From IMG/VR virus record IMGVR_UViG_2778261689_000003: a stretch of DNA of 8,891 nucleotides. One strand, 5' to 3'. A model generated the notes under the pieces. That model did not search any database. It was not told where the DNA came from and worked only from the letters and a program-made list of their open reading frames with translations. Source of the stretch: a virus (Duplodnaviria > Heunggongvirae > Uroviricota > Caudoviricetes). Below, one piece after another: positions 1,364 to 7,360 of this stretch. Position 1 is the first letter of the stretch. Each line of letters starts with the position of its first letter. Both the position numbers and the translations under genes were made by a program.

Positions 1364-1741
1364 TCACTGCATAACTTCACTCTTCAGGCACTCGCGACAG
1401 ATTATGTTCAGACGCCTGTCGTAACGGCGTATTTCTCCGTCTGGTAATGACCAGATAAGGTCAGGATCAACCACAACCGGTTTCTTCACCTTTGTCCTTG
1501 ATAGTTTTTTGCGGGCGTTTTGCCAGTCTTTACGCGCCTGCTCAGACGGGAATAATCCGTAGCCTGAATTGTAAACATCACCACTGGCGACTAGTTCTCT
1601 GGCGAGAGTGCTTATGTAATACCTTGATGCACCGGTTTTAGCCTCCAGAGCCCGTAACGTCTCGCGACCGCTCAGAGGTACAAGTTCAACAACCTGTCCT
1701 TTAATTTTTTCTCGCTCTTCTGGTGTAAATACTTTTGCCAT
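1364..1741 (-). CDS. Hypothetical protein (125 aa) with an HTH-like segment; last gene of the leftward operon
   Basis: ORF-track frame 1364..1756 (-). Position 1754-1756 is a TTG codon, not ATG; the first ATG is complementary to 1739-1741 and is preceded by GGAGG at 5-nt spacing. The segment RETLRALEAKTGASRYYISTLAREL looks like an HTH. It starts 16 nt after the upstream gene's stop (1757-1759). No family recognised. Confidence 0.6.
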   Translation of the reverse strand: MAKVFTPEEREKIKGQVVELVPLSGRETLRALEAKTGASRYYISTLARELVASGDVYNSGYGLFPSEQARKDWQNARKKLSRTKVKKPVVVDPDLIWSLPDGEIRRYDRRLNIICRECLKSEVMQ

Positions 1742-1756
1742 AGGTGCCTCCGGCAA

Positions 1757-2518
1757 TCACTTTTCCGATGCAACATGGCGGGAAGAATCAGTAATCTGTC
1801 GTACAATATCCCTGTGCTTGTTCAACTCACGCAGCGCGGCGCAGACACGCTCCCACTTCTGGACATGATTTTTCGCCCGACGCAGTTCGCGGTTTGCCAT
1901 ATGCAGTGATGGTAAAACCAGGTCATCCGCTCGCGTTTCAGTAAACGATGGCAGCGACTGCACAATGTCCGCCACAGTTTCTGTTTTAATATCTTCCTGT
2001 GTTGCAGCCTCCTGTACTGGTAACGCAACACCTGCGGTCTGAGGAAAGGCCTTACCATCAGTTTCCGCTACCGATGCTGCTTTCGGCTCTGCTGGTAAAT
2101 TATCGCCCGGTATGCAGTAACGAAATTTACCGCCCTGATTTACGCGAATCAGACGACCTTTGCTGATTGCCATTGCCAGCGTTGAAGCCACTTTGCGTGA
2201 TGTGGTACCAAACAATGTAGCCAGCTCATCAGCCGTTTGTGGTCCTCGTTGTTCAATCGTCGCGGTTAAATCGCACTCTGAGATTTTCGCTACTGTTGCT
2301 GTGGTGATTTCTTCCGGCAGTTCTGCCTGCGCTGGCTGTTCCTGCTGAACATTGTTATCAGCCACACGCCAGGTGTACGCGCTTTTATCAACAAAACCAG
2401 CCTTTTTCAGTTCCCATAGTTCGTTCAGCACTTCTTCACGACTGATATCAAGTCGCGCAGCAAGTTCTATGGATGTGGCTTCTCCCATTGCTTTCAGTGC
2501 GTCAAAAACAGTCTCCAT
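1757..2518 (-). CDS. Hypothetical protein with two tandem winged-helix-like domains and a C-terminal helical region (253 aa from preferred start)
   Basis: ORF-track frame 1757..2569 (-). Preferred start is the ATG complementary to 2516-2518 ([13 protein letters not shown]), with GGGAGA 8 nt upstream and no overlap with the DnaC-like gene; the alternative ATG at 2569 would overlap that gene by 29 nt. Two wHTH-like segments are visible ([40 protein letters not shown] and [29 protein letters not shown]). Function unknown. Confidence 0.6.
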
Positions 2519-2540
2519 TAAATTTTTCTCCCGGTAAAAA

Positions 2541-3287
2541 TTACTTCGCAATTCCTGGCTGGACGACATTCGGACGCCAGCTCTCCCAGTTAAAATTCAC
2601 CCATCGCCCGCCGTTCATGGTCATGCGATCCATAATCCGCTCGCCGAGCAATGTTTTCATGGCCTCATAGTTCAGGTTTGTCAGCATCCCCACGCTGCGC
2701 ATCGACGCTGTCCGGCGATCAACAATCTGGTGCAGTACCACCTGCTCGTTTTTCGTCTCGCGCTGAATGCCAATTTCATCAAGAACCAGCAGATCCACTT
2801 CGCACAGTTCCCGCAAAAATTTTTCGCCTGACTGCCCATCGTCATAGCTGGCGTGCAGGGCACTCATAACATCAGCCACGGTAACCACAATCACTGTCTG
2901 ACCGTCTTTCAGCAGGCGATTCCCGATAGCTGCCGCTAAGTGGTTCTTCCCGGTACCAGGTTTTCCGCTGAACGCAAAATTTGTACACCCGATCATCAGT
3001 TCATCAGCGATGGATTTCGCCTGACTCAACGCGTATCGCTGCCCTTCGTTCTGCACCTGGTAATTCGAAAACGAGCATTTGCGGTGCAATGGCTGGATGC
3101 CAGAGCGATTCAGAATTTTTTCCACCCGCAACTGACGATTCTGACGGTTGATCTCCTCACAACGTTTCTGGCCTTCGGAAAGTTGCCACTCGCGCCACTC
3201 CGCTACCGTCTTGAATGGCGCGGTTACATGTGACGGGGCCAGTCTGCGGATACGTTCAAGAACATCGCCTGTCGCAATATTTTTCAT
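2541..3287 (-). CDS. DnaC-like AAA+ helicase loader (phage replication protein, Rac YdaV-like), 248 aa
   Basis: Walker [18 protein letters not shown] and Walker [10 protein letters not shown] are present. The whole length is collinear with E. coli DnaC as I recall it (N-terminal PFKT, NRSGI.PLH, SF.NY, MLTN.N.EEM..LLGER.MDRM). ATG complementary to 3285-3287; stop complementary to 2541-2543. Confidence 0.9.
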
Positions 3288-3293
3288 GGTCAG

Positions 3294-4082
3294 TTACCCC
3301 CTGAAGCCTGGCGGGATCGCACTATCCGGTAACGAGACGGTGTTAACCTGTCGGAGTAACGTCTCAGGTCGAACACCTTTCGGCGCGAACAAGCCCTGGT
3401 ATTCATTGGCGATGCTGTGTCGAATCACCTGCTCAGGTGAAAAACCCTGCTGGCGGAATTTTTCCAGCTCCCGTATCGCCCCGTTAGCGCCCTGCTCCGT
3501 TCGAATCGGTTTTCGCAATGCCTGGCGAAATTCAACCCACTCACGCCAAAGCGAGACAGAAATCCAGTTCGGCAAAGTAATATCCAGAGGGTCAAACTTT
3601 TTGACACCTCGATTCCCCCGGGGGGGATTTAGGGGGGGATCTGTTTTTAGATCTTTATCTGTATCTTTATTAGTTGCCTTTGTGTTGACATCATGTTCAA
3701 ACACCACTTCAACATCTGTTTGAACACCTGTTAAATTTCTCTCTTGTTTTGTTTGAACATCTGCTTCCTTTCTGCTTCTTCTGGCCTGAACAGATGCTTT
3801 TCCTGCGGCTGATTTTTTGGTTAATTTTTCCCTGACTGATGCCAGATCTTCCTCAATCCGAAGATGCACCCATTCCTCGCCGTTATCGCAAAAAAACTCC
3901 TGCAAGGATGGTTCAACATCAGCCCATCGCTCGTTAGTCAGACGGGCAATTTTTGCCAGCCTGTTTTTAGGTATTGGCTTTCCTGTTTGCCAGTAATTGA
4001 ACATCAGCAACAAATACGCACCATGCTCCTCTGCTGACAAATGCATGGTGTCAGCCAGGTAATCAGCTATGTACAGTTGCAT
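3294..4082 (-). CDS. DUF1376-type (Rac YdaU-like) putative phage replication initiator/organiser, 262 aa
   Basis: N-terminus [34 protein letters not shown] fits my recollection of the DUF1376 N-terminal domain. A charged low-complexity linker precedes a C-terminal W-rich domain ([19 protein letters not shown]...). It sits immediately upstream of the DnaC-like gene with a 6-nt gap, the position held by ydaU in K-12 Rac. ATG complementary to 4080-4082, with AGGA 9 nt upstream. Confidence 0.75.
3693..3796. repeat. Iteron-like cluster of related 9-13 bp motifs (GTTTGAACA[C/T]CTG and relatives) in direct and inverted orientation, inside the YdaU-like coding region
   Basis: Read directly: ATGTTCAAACA 3693-3703 (inverted), TTCAACATCTG 3708-3718, GTTTGAACACCTG 3718-3730, GTTTGAACATCTG 3751-3763, TGAACAGATG 3787-3796 (inverted). 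An AT-rich segment with ATCTTTAT x2 (3651-3670) and C/G homopolymer tracts (3615-3638) follow on the gene's downstream side. Confidence 0.4.
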
Positions 4083-6105
4083 GTATGGTAATCCTGGTAA
4101 TTCAAACCTGGGACTGATAACTGCTTTTTTCGAAGCATACCTGAACGCTGACTACACCGATCGAGGACTGCTGACAAAAGAGTGGATGAAGGGTTATCGT
4201 GTTTCACACATCACTCGCACGGCTTCCGGTGCTAATGCTGGCGGCGGAAACCTCACCGATCGCGGCGAAGGTTTCGTACACGATCTGACGTCACTGGCGC
4301 GCGACGTAGCCACTGGCGTACTGGCCCGTTCAATGGATCTGGACATCTATAACCTTCATCCGGCACACGCTAAACGCATTGAGGAAATTATCGCTGAAAA
4401 TAAACCGCCCTTTTCTGTTTTCCGCGACAAATTCATCACCATGCCTGGCGGGCTGGATTATTCCCGCGCCATCGTGGTTGCGTCCGTAAAAGAAGCACCA
4501 ATTGGGATCGAGGTCATCCCCGCGCACGTCACTGAATATCTGAACAAAGTACTGACTGAAACCGATCATGCCAACCCTGATCCGGAAATCGTGGATATTG
4601 CCTGCGGTCGCTCCTCTGCCCCGATGCCGCAGCGAGTAACAGAAGAAGGAAAACAGGATGATGAAGAAAAACCGCAACCATCTGGAACAACGGCAGTTGA
4701 ACAGGGAGAGGCTGAAACAATGGAACCGGACGCAACTGAACATCATCAGGACACGCAGCCGCTGGATGCTCAGTCACAGGTAAATTCTGTTGATGCGAAA
4801 TATCAGGAACTGCGGGCAGAACTCCATGAAGCCCGGAAAAACATTCCATCAAAAAATCCTGTCGATGACGATAAATTGCTTGCTGCATCACGTGGTGAAT
4901 TTGTTGACGGAATTAGCGACCCGAACGATCCGAAATGGGTAAAGGGGATCCAGACTCGCGATTGTGTGTACCAGAACCAGCCAGAAACGGAAAAAACCAG
5001 CCCAGATATGAATCAACCTGAGCCAGTAGTGCAACAGGAACCGGAAATAGCCTGCAATGCCTGCGGCCAGACTGGCGGGGATAACTGCCCTGACTGTGGT
5101 GCGGTGATGGGCGACGCAACATACCAGGAAACATTCGATGAAGAGAGTCAGGTTGAAGCTAAGGAAAATGATCCGGAGGAAATGGAAGGCGCTGAACATC
5201 CGCACAATGAGAATGCTGGCAGCGATCCGCATCGCGATTGCAGTGATGAAACTGGCGAAGTCGCAGATCCCGTAATCGTAGAAGACATAGAGCCAGGTAT
5301 TTATTACGGAATTTCGAATGAGAATTACCACGCGGGTCCCGGTATCAGTAAGTCTCAGCTCGATGACATTGCTGATACTCCGGCACTATATTTGTGGCGT
5401 AAAAATGCCCCCGTGGACACCACAAAGACAAAAACGCTCGATTTAGGAACTGCTTTCCACTGCCGGGTACTTGAACCGGAAGAATTCAGTAACCGCTTTA
5501 TCGTAGCACCTGAATTTAACCGCCGTACAAACGCCGGAAAAGAAGAAGAGAAAGCGTTTCTGATGGAATGCGCAAGCACAGGAAAAACGGTTATCACTGC
5601 GGAAGAAGGCCGGAAAATTGAACTCATGTATCAAAGCGTTATGGCTTTGCCGCTGGGGCAATGGCTTGTTAAAAGCGCCGGACACGCTGAATCATCAATT
5701 TACTGGGAAGATCCTGAAACAGGAATTTTGTGTCGGTGCCGTCCGGACAAAATTATCCCTGAATTTCACTGGATCATGGACGTGAAAACTACGGCGGATA
5801 TTCAACGATTCAAAACCGCTTATTACGACTACCGCTATCACGTTCAGGATGCATTCTACAGTGACGGTTATGAAGCACAGTTTGGAGTGCAGCCAACTTT
5901 CGTTTTTCTGGTTGCCAGCACAACTATTGAATGCGGACGTTATCCGGTTGAAATTTTCATGATGGGCGAAGAAGCAAAACTGGCAGGTCAACAGGAATAT
6001 CACCGCAATCTGCGAACCCTGTCTGACTGCCTGAATACCGATGAATGGCCAGCTATTAAGACATTATCACTGCCCCGCTGGGCTAAGGAATATGCAAATG
6101 ACTAA
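4069..6105 (+). CDS. recE: Exodeoxyribonuclease VIII (RecE), 5'-truncated form (678 aa ORF) retaining the C-terminal nuclease domain
   Basis: The translation matches E. coli Rac RecE as I remember it, from ...[17 protein letters not shown] through the acidic linker, a CxxC-x7-CxxC zinc ribbon ([16 protein letters not shown], nt 5053-5097) and the C-terminal end ...[12 protein letters not shown]. Full-length K-12 RecE is 866 aa, so roughly the first 190 residues are absent (approximate, from memory). The frame is closed upstream by TAA at 4060-4062; the first ATGs are 4069 and 4081, neither with a convincing SD. Stop TAA at 6103-6105 overlaps the recT start. Confidence 0.85.
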
Positions 6106-6907
6106 GCAACCACCAATCGCAAAAGCCGATCTGCAAAAAACTCAGGGAAACCGTGCACCAGCAGCAGTTAAAAATAGCGACGTGATTAGTTTTATTAACC
6201 AGCCATCAATGAAAGAGCAACTGGCAGCAGCTCTTCCACGCCATATGACGGCTGAACGTATGATCCGTATCGCCACCACAGAAATTCGTAAAGTTCCGGC
6301 GTTAGGAAACTGTGACACTATGAGTTTTGTCAGTGCGATCGTACAGTGTTCACAGCTCGGACTTGAGCCAGGTAGCGCCCTCGGTCATGCATATTTACTG
6401 CCTTTTGGTAATAAAAACGAAAAGAGCGGTAAAAAGAACGTTCAGCTAATCATTGGCTATCGCGGCATGATTGATCTGGCTCGCCGTTCTGGTCAAATCG
6501 CCAGCCTGTCAGCCCGTGTTGTCCGTGAAGGTGACGAGTTTAGCTTCGAATTTGGCCTTGATGAAAAGTTAATACACCGCCCGGGAGAAAACGAAGATGC
6601 CCCGGTTACCCACGTCTATGCTGTCGCAAGACTGAAAGACGGAGGTACTCAGTTTGAAGTTATGACGCGCAAACAGATTGAGCTGGTGCGCAGCCTGAGT
6701 AAAGCTGGTAATAACGGGCCGTGGGTAACTCACTGGGAAGAAATGGCAAAGAAAACGGCTATTCGTCGCCTGTTCAAATATTTGCCCGTATCAATTGAGA
6801 TCCAGCGTGCAGTATCAATGGATGAAAAGGAACCACTGACAATCGATCCTGCAGATTCCTCTGTATTAACCGGGGAATACAGTGTAATCGATAATTCAGA
6901 GGAATAA
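6098..6907 (+). CDS. recT: RecT single-strand annealing protein, 269 aa
   Basis: The translation from [28 protein letters not shown]... to ...VIDNSEE matches E. coli Rac RecT. Start is the ATG at 6098 inside the overlap ATGACTAA with the recE stop, not the ORF-track start at 6041, which lies within recE. Stop TAA at 6905-6907. Confidence 0.95.
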
Positions 6908-6914
6908 TTCAGCC

Positions 6915-6950
6915 TGGCGGTGTAATGCACCGCCAACTTGAAATATTTTT
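6915..6950 (+). terminator. GC-rich stem-loop (8-bp stem TGGCGGTG/CACCGCCA, 5-nt loop) followed 9 nt later by T6; possible weak terminator or attenuator between recT and ralR
   Basis: Read directly: the stem is 6915-6922 paired with 6928-6935, and the T-run is 6945-6950. The T-tract is not immediately adjacent to the stem, so this is not a canonical intrinsic terminator. Confidence 0.25.
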
Positions 6951-6963
6951 TATGAGAAAAATT

Positions 6964-7158
6964 ATGAGATATGACAATGTTAAACCATGTCCATTTTGTG
7001 GTTGTCCATCAGTAACGGTGAAAGCCATTTCAGGATATTACCGAGCGAAGTGTAACGGATGCGAATCCCGAACCGGTTATGGTGGAAGTGAAAAAGAAGC
7101 ACTCGAAAGATGGAATAAACGAACCACTGGAAATAATAATGGAGGTGTTCATGTATAA
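6964..7158 (+). CDS. ralR: RalR / Lar-family restriction-alleviation zinc-ribbon protein (type I toxin in Rac), 64 aa
   Basis: The translation MRYDNVKPCPFCGCPSVTVKAISGYYRAKCNGCESRTGYGGSEKEALERWNKRTTGNNNGGVHV, with CxxCGC ... CxxC cysteines, matches K-12 RalR as I recall it. The start is taken at ATG 6964; the ORF-track frame extends upstream to 6925 without support. Confidence 0.85.
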   Translation: MRYDNVKPCPFCGCPSVTVKAISGYYRAKCNGCESRTGYGGSEKEALERWNKRTTGNNNGGVHV

Positions 7159-7360
7159 AATTACCGCCACTATTGAAAAGGAAGGTGGCACTCCTACTAA
7201 CTGGACAAGATATTCAAAATCTAAACTAACGAAATCAGAATGCGAAAAAATGCTCTCAGGTAAAAAAGAAGCAGGCGTTTCCAGAGAGCAGAAAGTAAAA
7301 CTGATAAATTTTAATTGCGAGAAACTTCAGTCCTCGAGAATTGCATTGTATTCAAATTAA
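7151..7360 (+). CDS. ydaC: YdaC-like small Rac prophage protein, 69 aa
   Basis: ATG 7151 is preceded by GGAGG (7141-7145) at 5-nt spacing and overlaps the ralR 3' end by 8 nt. The product MYKITATIEKEGGTPTNWTRYSK... matches my recollection of Rac YdaC. Stop TAA at 7358-7360. Confidence 0.8.
   Translation: MYKITATIEKEGGTPTNWTRYSKSKLTKSECEKMLSGKKEAGVSREQKVKLINFNCEKLQSSRIALYSN

Follow-up and report, generated by a model that had tools for sequence, protein, structure and literature searches.

A probable replication origin within the linker-coding part of the initiator gene ydaU of a Rac-type prophage

The DNA analysed here, IMG/VR record IMGVR_UViG_2778261689_000003 (8,891 bases, the whole of which is referred to as the window), represents a cryptic Escherichia coli prophage of the Rac type in which positions 3294–4092 are 100 % identical to ydaU of E. 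coli K-12 MG1655 and the Rac gene order is retained around them. Comparison of this gene with its homologues leads us to conclude that positions 3637–3791 (equivalent to 1421.4–1421.6 kb in K-12), together with an auxiliary patch at approximately 3886–3941, are probably the cis-acting replication origin of Rac, most likely oriJ, and that this origin lies inside the part of ydaU that codes for the linker between the two domains of its product. An origin embedded in this gene had been suggested in a preliminary description of the window, which listed a set of iteron-like repeats and adjoining elements that are all present where it had placed them, and the suggestion is now supported computationally by nearly frozen codons, by the phasing of the repeats and by the modular layout of the gene. 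The features referred to below are collected in Table 1.

Boxes and codon constraint in the ydaU linker

The repeats are short boxes that fall between the Pfam DUF1376 domain (amino acids (aa) 1–81 of the open reading frame (ORF)) and an O-like C-terminal part, and the cluster was thus correctly assigned to the inter-domain linker at the outset. Four boxes are strong (3751–3758, 3718–3725, 3706–3713 and, inverted, 3695–3702) and two are weak (3784–3791 and 3684–3689), and the earlier count of about five copies in direct and inverted orientation was a fair one. On the sense strand, the boxes starting with GTT begin at nucleotides (nt) 310, 343, 376, 388, 399 and 412 of the true gene, giving start-to-start spacings of 33, 33, 12, 11 and 13 bp. 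Exactly three copies of TGTTTGAACA exist in the 8,891 bases, at 3694–3703 (− strand), 3717–3726 (+) and 3750–3759 (+), TGTTTGAACAYCTG has two exact copies, at 3717 and 3750, and GAACAYCTG occurs twice with 0.10 occurrences expected. When the window was scanned for repeated 7-mers, the 150-nt segments over 3611–3840 had the top score (17, compared to a mean of 2.3 with a standard deviation of 2.5), and three copies of a 10-mer within 100 nt were seen in none of 200 mononucleotide shuffles of the window.

The alternative offered in the preliminary description was that the DNA repeats are a by-product of a repetitive charged linker (VQT, DVE, KDTDKD) and have no function at the DNA level. In accord with this, the Rac repeats are in frame, the 33-bp spacing corresponds to 11 codons, and the peptides DVQT, GVQT and DVEV recur. 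However, when the peptide was kept and its codons were redrawn from the usage of the Rac genes of the window, three copies of the 10-mer were obtained in 0 of 5000 trials, and the observed 8-mer excess of 10 (mean 0.69) was also not reached in any of 5000 such resamplings. As, in addition, the inverted copy of the box encodes a different peptide, VFEH, the array is not merely the reflection of a repetitive peptide.

A search with the full-length protein had retrieved only near-identical E. coli entries, and homologues were sought in one genome per bacterial species, which yielded 80 diverse DUF1376 loci; 33 diverse homologues were compared in codon alignment. For 55 of the 80 loci (approximately 3.5 kb each), the repeat maximum falls between +300 and +500 nt relative to the start of the gene. 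Free variation of the repeats at synonymous sites, which the preliminary description had named as grounds for rejecting an origin, was not observed in the homologues compared; on the contrary, codon choice is almost fixed in the linker and unconstrained in the N-terminal domain. At shared amino acids the probability of finding the same codon is 0.94 in the linker versus 0.45 in the N-terminal domain (P = 3e-10) and falls to 0.29 downstream of the linker, while amino acid identity is 0.36 in the linker versus 0.63 in the N-terminal domain, the linker being the least conserved part of the protein. Within it, Ser is encoded by TCA in 28 of 28 sequences, Val by GTT in 30 of 30 and Leu by the rare codon CTA in 15 of 17.

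The linker DNA of these homologues is made up of two parts, namely two to five boxes of the CGTT(C/G)AACG type followed by (GATACA)n or AATAAAGATACAGATAAAGATCTAAAAGA, and this arrangement was found in Enterobacterales, Pseudomonas, Azotobacter (65 % G+C), Frateuria and several metagenome-assembled genomes (MAGs). For the exact sequence GTTSAAC, the density per kb is 8.5 in the linker, 6.4 in a patch at gene nt 150–230, 0.41 over the remainder of the gene and 0.17 in the flanks, which amounts to an approximately 50-fold enrichment for the linker. Adjacent boxes are 11 (seven cases), 22 (five), 33 (two) or 34 bp apart, and the lag autocorrelation of 5-mers peaks at 11, 22 and 33 bp. An 11-bp spacing is not a multiple of 3 and therefore indicates helical rather than codon phasing. 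The boxes lie in both orientations and in three reading frames, such that RST, DVE, TLN and PFEQ are all readings of one box. With codons frozen while the amino acids diverge, and with one box read in three frames at a spacing that does not fit codons, the explanation by the peptide alone is highly improbable.

A constraint acting on RNA, either a structured element or an antisense RNA in the ydaU mRNA, appears more improbable still. Inverted boxes can form a hairpin, and the predicted fold is slightly more stable than that of shuffled sequences (z = −1.96 for the sense and −1.49 for the antisense strand), but these scores are weak, no structured-RNA family was matched in an Rfam search of the region, and a promoter scan of the linker region revealed no promoter-like site. 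Moreover, homologues differ from one another, in steps of 11 bp, in how many boxes they have and in how these are spaced and oriented, which fits the faces of duplex DNA and not a conserved RNA fold.

In the second part of the linker, which encodes Thr-Asp runs, Thr is encoded by ACA in 67 of 67 codons and Asp by GAT in 71 of 71, compared to 18 % and 46 % elsewhere in the same genes, and the pattern persists in genomes with at least 55 % G+C. The Rac counterpart of the (GATACA)n run is an AT-rich stretch which, as described before, contains ATCTTTAT twice (3651–3658 and 3663–3670) and comes after the boxes in the direction of transcription. Two GATC sites (3638–3641 and 3650–3653) are found in it, and it includes the least stable 40-mer (3637–3676) of the replication module at 1364–4092, such that the least stable duplex is directly downstream of the boxes. 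One 13-mer in the stretch (3638–3650, GATCTGTTTTTAG) matches the oriC consensus at 11 of 13 positions; at this stringency, oriC-type 13-mers are not enriched (4 found, 5.1 expected). A DnaA-dependent, oriC-like origin with an array of GATCTnTTnTTTT 13-mers was considered and dropped, as both the 13-mers and DnaA boxes are at chance level.

A possible third component is the auxiliary patch within the coding region of the N-terminal domain, which is the third member of repeat family D1 and in which synonymous constraint is also raised (0.65 versus 0.45, P = 7e-5). It may be a second initiator-binding cluster, about 170–200 bp upstream of the main array.

In more distant DUF1376 genes, from Acidobacteriaceae and other MAGs (loci L139–L165), gene nt ~330–470 contain three to nine AGCAWTGCT boxes in both orientations and, after them, a hexamer run of (TCAGAA)n, (TCACAA)n, (TCACAT)n or (TCACCT)n; the position within the gene is unchanged. 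Judged by these motifs, the AGCAWTGCT boxes and TCA-type hexamers are a different dialect of one layout. A few loci from Pseudomonas, Kosakonia and Phytobacter (L111, L112, L114, L116 and L118) differ in that DUF1376 is fused to another downstream part (...GYVYF...IGYSKNPWARLSELR...). They have no linker with boxes and hexamers, their repeat maxima are elsewhere, and they represent a different family architecture.

Initiator domains, module exchange and a proposed mechanism

The N-terminal domain of YdaU matches DUF1376 (PF07120) with 86.4 bits (gathering cut-off 30.1; E = 1.7e-24), and this was the only Pfam match, Phage_rep_O (PF04492) not being detected. Among the PHROG families, YdaU matches phrog_6451 ('primosomal protein') and, via its C-terminal part, phrog_678 ('replication initiation O-like', E = 1.7e-22), and in tblastn searches aa 150–262 matched SPN3UB PrpO, mEpX1 O and the O protein of a Klebsiella phage. 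An AlphaFold2 model of the N-terminal domain built from a 106-sequence alignment has a predicted local distance difference test (pLDDT) score of 93.7 and consists of four helices, a beta hairpin and a long helix. Foldseek matches to it in the PDB were weak (E of at least 0.025) and were all winged-helix DNA-binding domains, those nearest by low root-mean-square deviation being the winged-helix domains of initiators; the DUF1376 profile gave nothing significant against the sequences of solved structures. As modelled, the domain fits a DNA-binding role in origin recognition. Direct homology of YdaU to the O protein of phage lambda was also considered and was rejected (BLASTP E = 0.78); lambda O itself matches PF04492.

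The YdaU annotated in K-12 (285 aa) begins 17 codons upstream of the sequence MAALPY (L001 9807–9858). This start has probably been placed too far upstream, because MAALPY is the N-terminus common to homologues from many genera.

Two natural variants of the locus reveal that its parts have been exchanged as modules. In the Rac-like element MN652886, the N-terminal domain is unrelated and belongs to no Pfam family, and the boxes are of a different type, GCGTTAC, with five at gene nt 322–410, a further two at 160–180, at the same offset as the auxiliary patch of Rac, and a (GAGGAA)n run following; the C-terminal domain and the YdaV loader are the same as in Rac. The reverse is seen in E. coli S19-651, where the N-terminal domain, the boxes and the AT-rich stretch are those of Rac (95 % identical) and are joined to a different C-terminal half followed by a lambda-P-like loader. 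In a three-way alignment of Rac, S19-651 and MN652886 both joints lie at window ~3640–3657, and partial matches in E. coli genomes end at the same joint (query position 362–365). Hence, as far as can be judged from sequences of MN652886, S19-651 and the acidobacterial relatives, which are few independent cases to which no statistic was attached, the type of box co-varies with the N-terminal domain.

Two of the elements in the preliminary description, the GATCT-6 nt-AGATC inverted repeat (3638–3653) and the C and G homopolymer tracts, are indeed present, but they are not features of the family as a whole. The tract stretch is shared with MN652886, despite the different N-terminal domain of that variant, whereas neither S19-651 nor distant homologues have it, which assigns it, on sequence grounds, to the C-terminal module. 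The tracts are prone to slippage, and one E. coli match (H14), at 788 nt rather than 789 nt, may be a frameshift in them. An IS3-family element lies in ydaU of E. coli 08_3323 (L168 748–1961), exactly in the AT-rich stretch at the equivalent of window ~3658, where it separates the N-terminal domain and boxes from the C-terminal half.

The replication-type genes of the element are ydaU and ydaV only. The ydaV product, the DnaC-like loader that had been named as the partner of this gene, matches Pfam IstB_IS21 and Bac_DnaA, the NCBIfam models PRK12377 (504 bits) and DnaC (308 bits), and phrog_50. More generally, the gene after the DUF1376 gene encodes a DnaC/IstB-like loader, a P-like loader or a DnaB helicase in eight of ten loci, the remaining two having no Pfam match. 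Co-variation of the C-terminal domain with the loader was not established statistically and is seen in the E. coli variants only; in one Pseudomonas homologue, a Rac-like C-terminal part is followed by a P-like gene.

The boxes might instead belong to a DNA site of another kind, such as an operator through which the replication operon regulates itself, a site for partition or packaging, or a conserved 'linker' retained because it promotes module exchange between phages. The natural recombination joints at the edge of the box region would suit the last of these, short palindromic box arrays are known from operators and centromere-like sites, and frozen synonymous sites attest to constraint or to recent sharing without specifying a function. 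We nevertheless consider a site of this kind unlikely. Boxes together with the least stable duplex, within an initiator gene and upstream of the loader gene, form the canonical layout of an origin, the box type tracks the N-terminal domain of the encoding protein, and recent sharing would conserve the amino acids too, yet these are least conserved in the linker.

If the site is an origin, as we favour, the winged-helix DUF1376 domain of YdaU would bind the helically phased GTT(C/G)AA-core boxes, and the resulting nucleoprotein complex would destabilise the adjoining AT-rich, GATC-containing stretch at 3637–3680. The O-like C-terminal domain would then recruit the DnaC-like loader YdaV with DnaB of the host. 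Transcription of ydaS-ydaT-ydaU-ydaV, which is normally repressed by RacR, would both supply the initiator and traverse the origin. It may be speculated that firing of the origin in situ adds to the harm caused by loss of RacR, beside the reported toxicity of YdaS and YdaT. The proposal gives DUF1376/YdaU, which has homologues in prophages of many phyla, a testable function, namely origin binding.

A broader, tentative proposal, which we regard as possible rather than probable, is that DUF1376, so far classed as a domain of unknown function, acts as the winged helix for origin recognition in a large class of phage and prophage initiators that spans phyla. The origin would in every case be located in the linker of the initiator gene and would consist of short, 11-bp-phased palindromic boxes and a hexanucleotide microsatellite read in frame, which would be (GATACA)n in Gammaproteobacteria and, in Acidobacteriota and others, (TCAGAA)n, (TCACAA)n or (TCACCT)n. 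If this is true, the microsatellite would serve as unwinding element and at the same time as a flexible TD, SE or SQ linker, and a change in repeat number would alter the origin and the protein together. Phased boxes and a hexamer run in a linker would also be a simple predictor of the origin for this phage replication module. No description of the DUF1376, 11-bp box and hexamer pattern was found in the searchable literature.

Probable identity with oriJ and the deleted allele in the window

The origin of Rac, oriJ, has been known genetically since the 1970s, and Potrykus 2000 is cited in PMC11014345. Because a Rac origin was already known in this way, the linker site is probably the sequence-level identity of oriJ and not a new origin. 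Rac has been reported to have an active origin, oriJ (PMC3945230), and oriJ plasmids exist (PMC11014345, PMC3945230). At the level of sequence, we think it likely that oriJ corresponds to window 3637–3791, perhaps with the addition of the patch at 3886–3941, which provides a nucleotide-level candidate for an origin that the reference genome of E. coli K-12 leaves without annotation.

Several observations weigh against this conclusion. No nucleotide-level definition of oriJ was found in the accessible literature and the K-12 record NC_000913.3 has no oriJ feature, and the primers described as 'framing oriJ' (PMC3945230) map inside ydaV, at window 2876–3030, some 700 bp away. The Rac boxes are short (8–10 bp) and have GTTCAAAC in place of the family consensus GTTSAAC, and neither DnaA boxes nor IHF sites nor oriC-type 13-mers are enriched at the locus. 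Close E. coli relatives are uninformative because they are too similar; in 80 viral contigs with 93–100 % identity the variable sites are evenly spread and synonymous constraint is not resolvable. Frequent horizontal exchange of the segment, and not selection, might in principle account for the frozen codons. Slippage, too, homogenises microsatellite runs within a locus, though it is insufficient as an explanation because the same hexamer is found in 18 loci from diverse taxa. Finally, binding, unwinding and initiation are steps that we infer from the analogy with lambda O and P and from the anatomy of the locus.

The position of the published primers raises the question of whether oriJ is elsewhere in Rac, either at the primer site in ydaV or in an intergenic region deleted from the window, with the ydaU repeats being secondary or vestigial. 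However, the 155 bp amplified from ydaV contain neither repeats nor an AT-rich segment (repeat score 0–2 versus 17), and the constraint on DNA that is seen family-wide falls in the ydaU linker. A nearby amplicon is adequate for copy-number polymerase chain reaction (PCR), and the one in ydaV does not define the origin. An oriJ outside ydaU is thus very unlikely. We infer the identity of the linker site with oriJ, because the literature yielded no nucleotide-level definition and the only published primers map to ydaV.

The allele in the window is a deleted one. Base-by-base comparison with MG1655 revealed a 4,379-bp deletion that removed racC, kilR, sieB, racR, ydaS and ydaT along with the promoter of the operon and codons 1–3 of ydaU (MAA). 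What is left of ydaU is now fused to the interior of recE in head-to-head orientation. The early regulatory region is gone in its entirety, from racC to ydaT, and the recE' ORF (window 4069–6105, 678 aa) retains only the C-terminal PDDEXK nuclease part. A ydaU match is present in 1505 of 5426 complete E. coli genomes, and the deleted allele recurs unchanged in several complete genomes. The cis elements of the candidate origin in the window are intact and identical to those of K-12. As the deletion took the promoter and start of ydaU and its regulators, the origin in the window is probably a silent relic, inactive in cis, which could fire only if YdaU and YdaV were supplied in trans by a related phage. 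Silent origins of this kind would be sites that a superinfecting relative could amplify in trans.

Table 1. Features of the ydaU region, in window coordinates
Feature	Position	Strand	Description
ydaV	2541–3287	−	DnaC-like helicase loader, directly downstream of ydaU
ydaU'	3294–4082	−	5'-truncated replication initiator gene (DUF1376 N-terminal domain, linker, O-like C-terminal domain); homology to K-12 ydaU extends to 4092
C-terminal domain coding region	3294–3636	−	O-like; proposed loader-recruiting domain
Homopolymer tracts C5, G7, G7	3615–3638		Encode DPPLNPPRG; start of the C-terminal module
AT-rich stretch	3637–3680		Candidate DNA-unwinding element; AATAAAGATACAGATAAAGATCTAAAAACAGATC on the sense strand
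Module joint	3640–3657		Natural recombinants have N-terminal domain, boxes and AT-rich stretch on one side, C-terminal domain and loader on the other
Box array	3684–3791		Candidate iterons; GTT(C/G)AA-core boxes
DUF1376 N-terminal domain coding region	3840–4082	−	Predicted winged helix; proposed origin-recognition domain
Auxiliary box patch	3886–3941		Within the N-terminal domain coding region; exact GTTCAAC at 3911–3917
Deletion junction	4089–4092		4,379-bp deletion relative to K-12; TAAT microhomology

The genes past ydaV are a DUF1627 gene and a DUF977 gene, and on the opposite flank are recE', recT, the RalR/RalA locus and intR. The DUF1627 (ydaW-like) gene is intact in the window and is accompanied by the DUF977 gene; K-12 has a truncated ydaW. 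Identity with K-12 ends near window 2068. The left end of the window is low in G+C (0.30–0.45) and carries an adenosine-deaminase-like fragment and a TetR-like regulator, both foreign to the K-12 Rac. These features of the left part, the DUF1627 and DUF977 genes included, fall within 1–1100 and 1364–2569. Just past the recT stop, a GC-rich hairpin (GCCTGGCGGTG...CACCGCCAAC) followed by a T-run at 6903–6950 resembles an intrinsic terminator, and the area ranks second in the window for repeat score. At 7157–7335 (− strand), next to a ralR-like ORF, the RalA antitoxin small RNA is matched over its full length (Rfam RF02694, 225 bits), the two forming the known type I toxin-antitoxin pair of Rac.

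Comparison with known systems

The origin proposed here belongs to the same element as oriJ of the K-12 Rac prophage, window 3294–4092 being identical in the two. In respect of its AT-rich stretch with two GATC sites, it resembles the unwinding regions of E. coli oriC and P1 oriR, which consist of AT-rich 13-mers or heptamers with GATC. It differs from them in that the GATACA runs of non-enterobacterial homologues are without GATC and that DnaA boxes are not enriched. In the RepA_N plasmid replicons of Gram-positive bacteria (pAD1, pSK41/pTZ2162), the origin is inside the repA coding sequence. These replicons have repeats in the middle of the initiator gene, as in Rac, and an initiator N-terminal domain that is a winged helix, as is predicted for YdaU; any likeness in fold is at the level of winged helices in general. 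There is no relationship at the level of sequence (Pfam found DUF1376 only), and the Rac system differs in belonging to a phage or prophage and in having a helicase loader of its own.

The closest parallel is the origin of lambda within gene O, and the resemblance to this layout noted in the preliminary description holds for both the offset within the gene, which is nearly the same, and the modular exchange of domains. In both, the repeats fall in the inter-domain linker (gene nt 349–433 for the lambda iterons, 310–417 for the Rac boxes) and have an AT-rich stretch after them in the direction of transcription, the two together spanning nt 310–464 in Rac (AT-rich part 421–464) and 349–475 in lambda. 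The helicase-loader gene comes directly after the initiator gene, exchange involves two modules, one made up of the N-terminal domain with the repeats and the other of the C-terminal domain with the loader, and cro/cII-like genes and a repressor lie upstream. The components, however, are not those of lambda. The Rac N-terminal domain is DUF1376 (PF07120) and not Phage_rep_O (PF04492), with no similarity to lambda O detected by BLASTP, and the loader is DnaC-like rather than P. The Rac boxes, of 8–10 bp and phased at 11 bp, contrast with the four 18–19-bp iterons of lambda, its AT-rich part takes the form of a GATACA-type hexamer run that includes GATC sites in the Rac origin, and Rac has the extra box patch in the coding region for the N-terminal domain. 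Thus, origins within initiator genes are already known from lambdoid phages and RepA_N plasmids, as is the Rac origin genetically, and what is less expected is the family-wide pattern associated with DUF1376.

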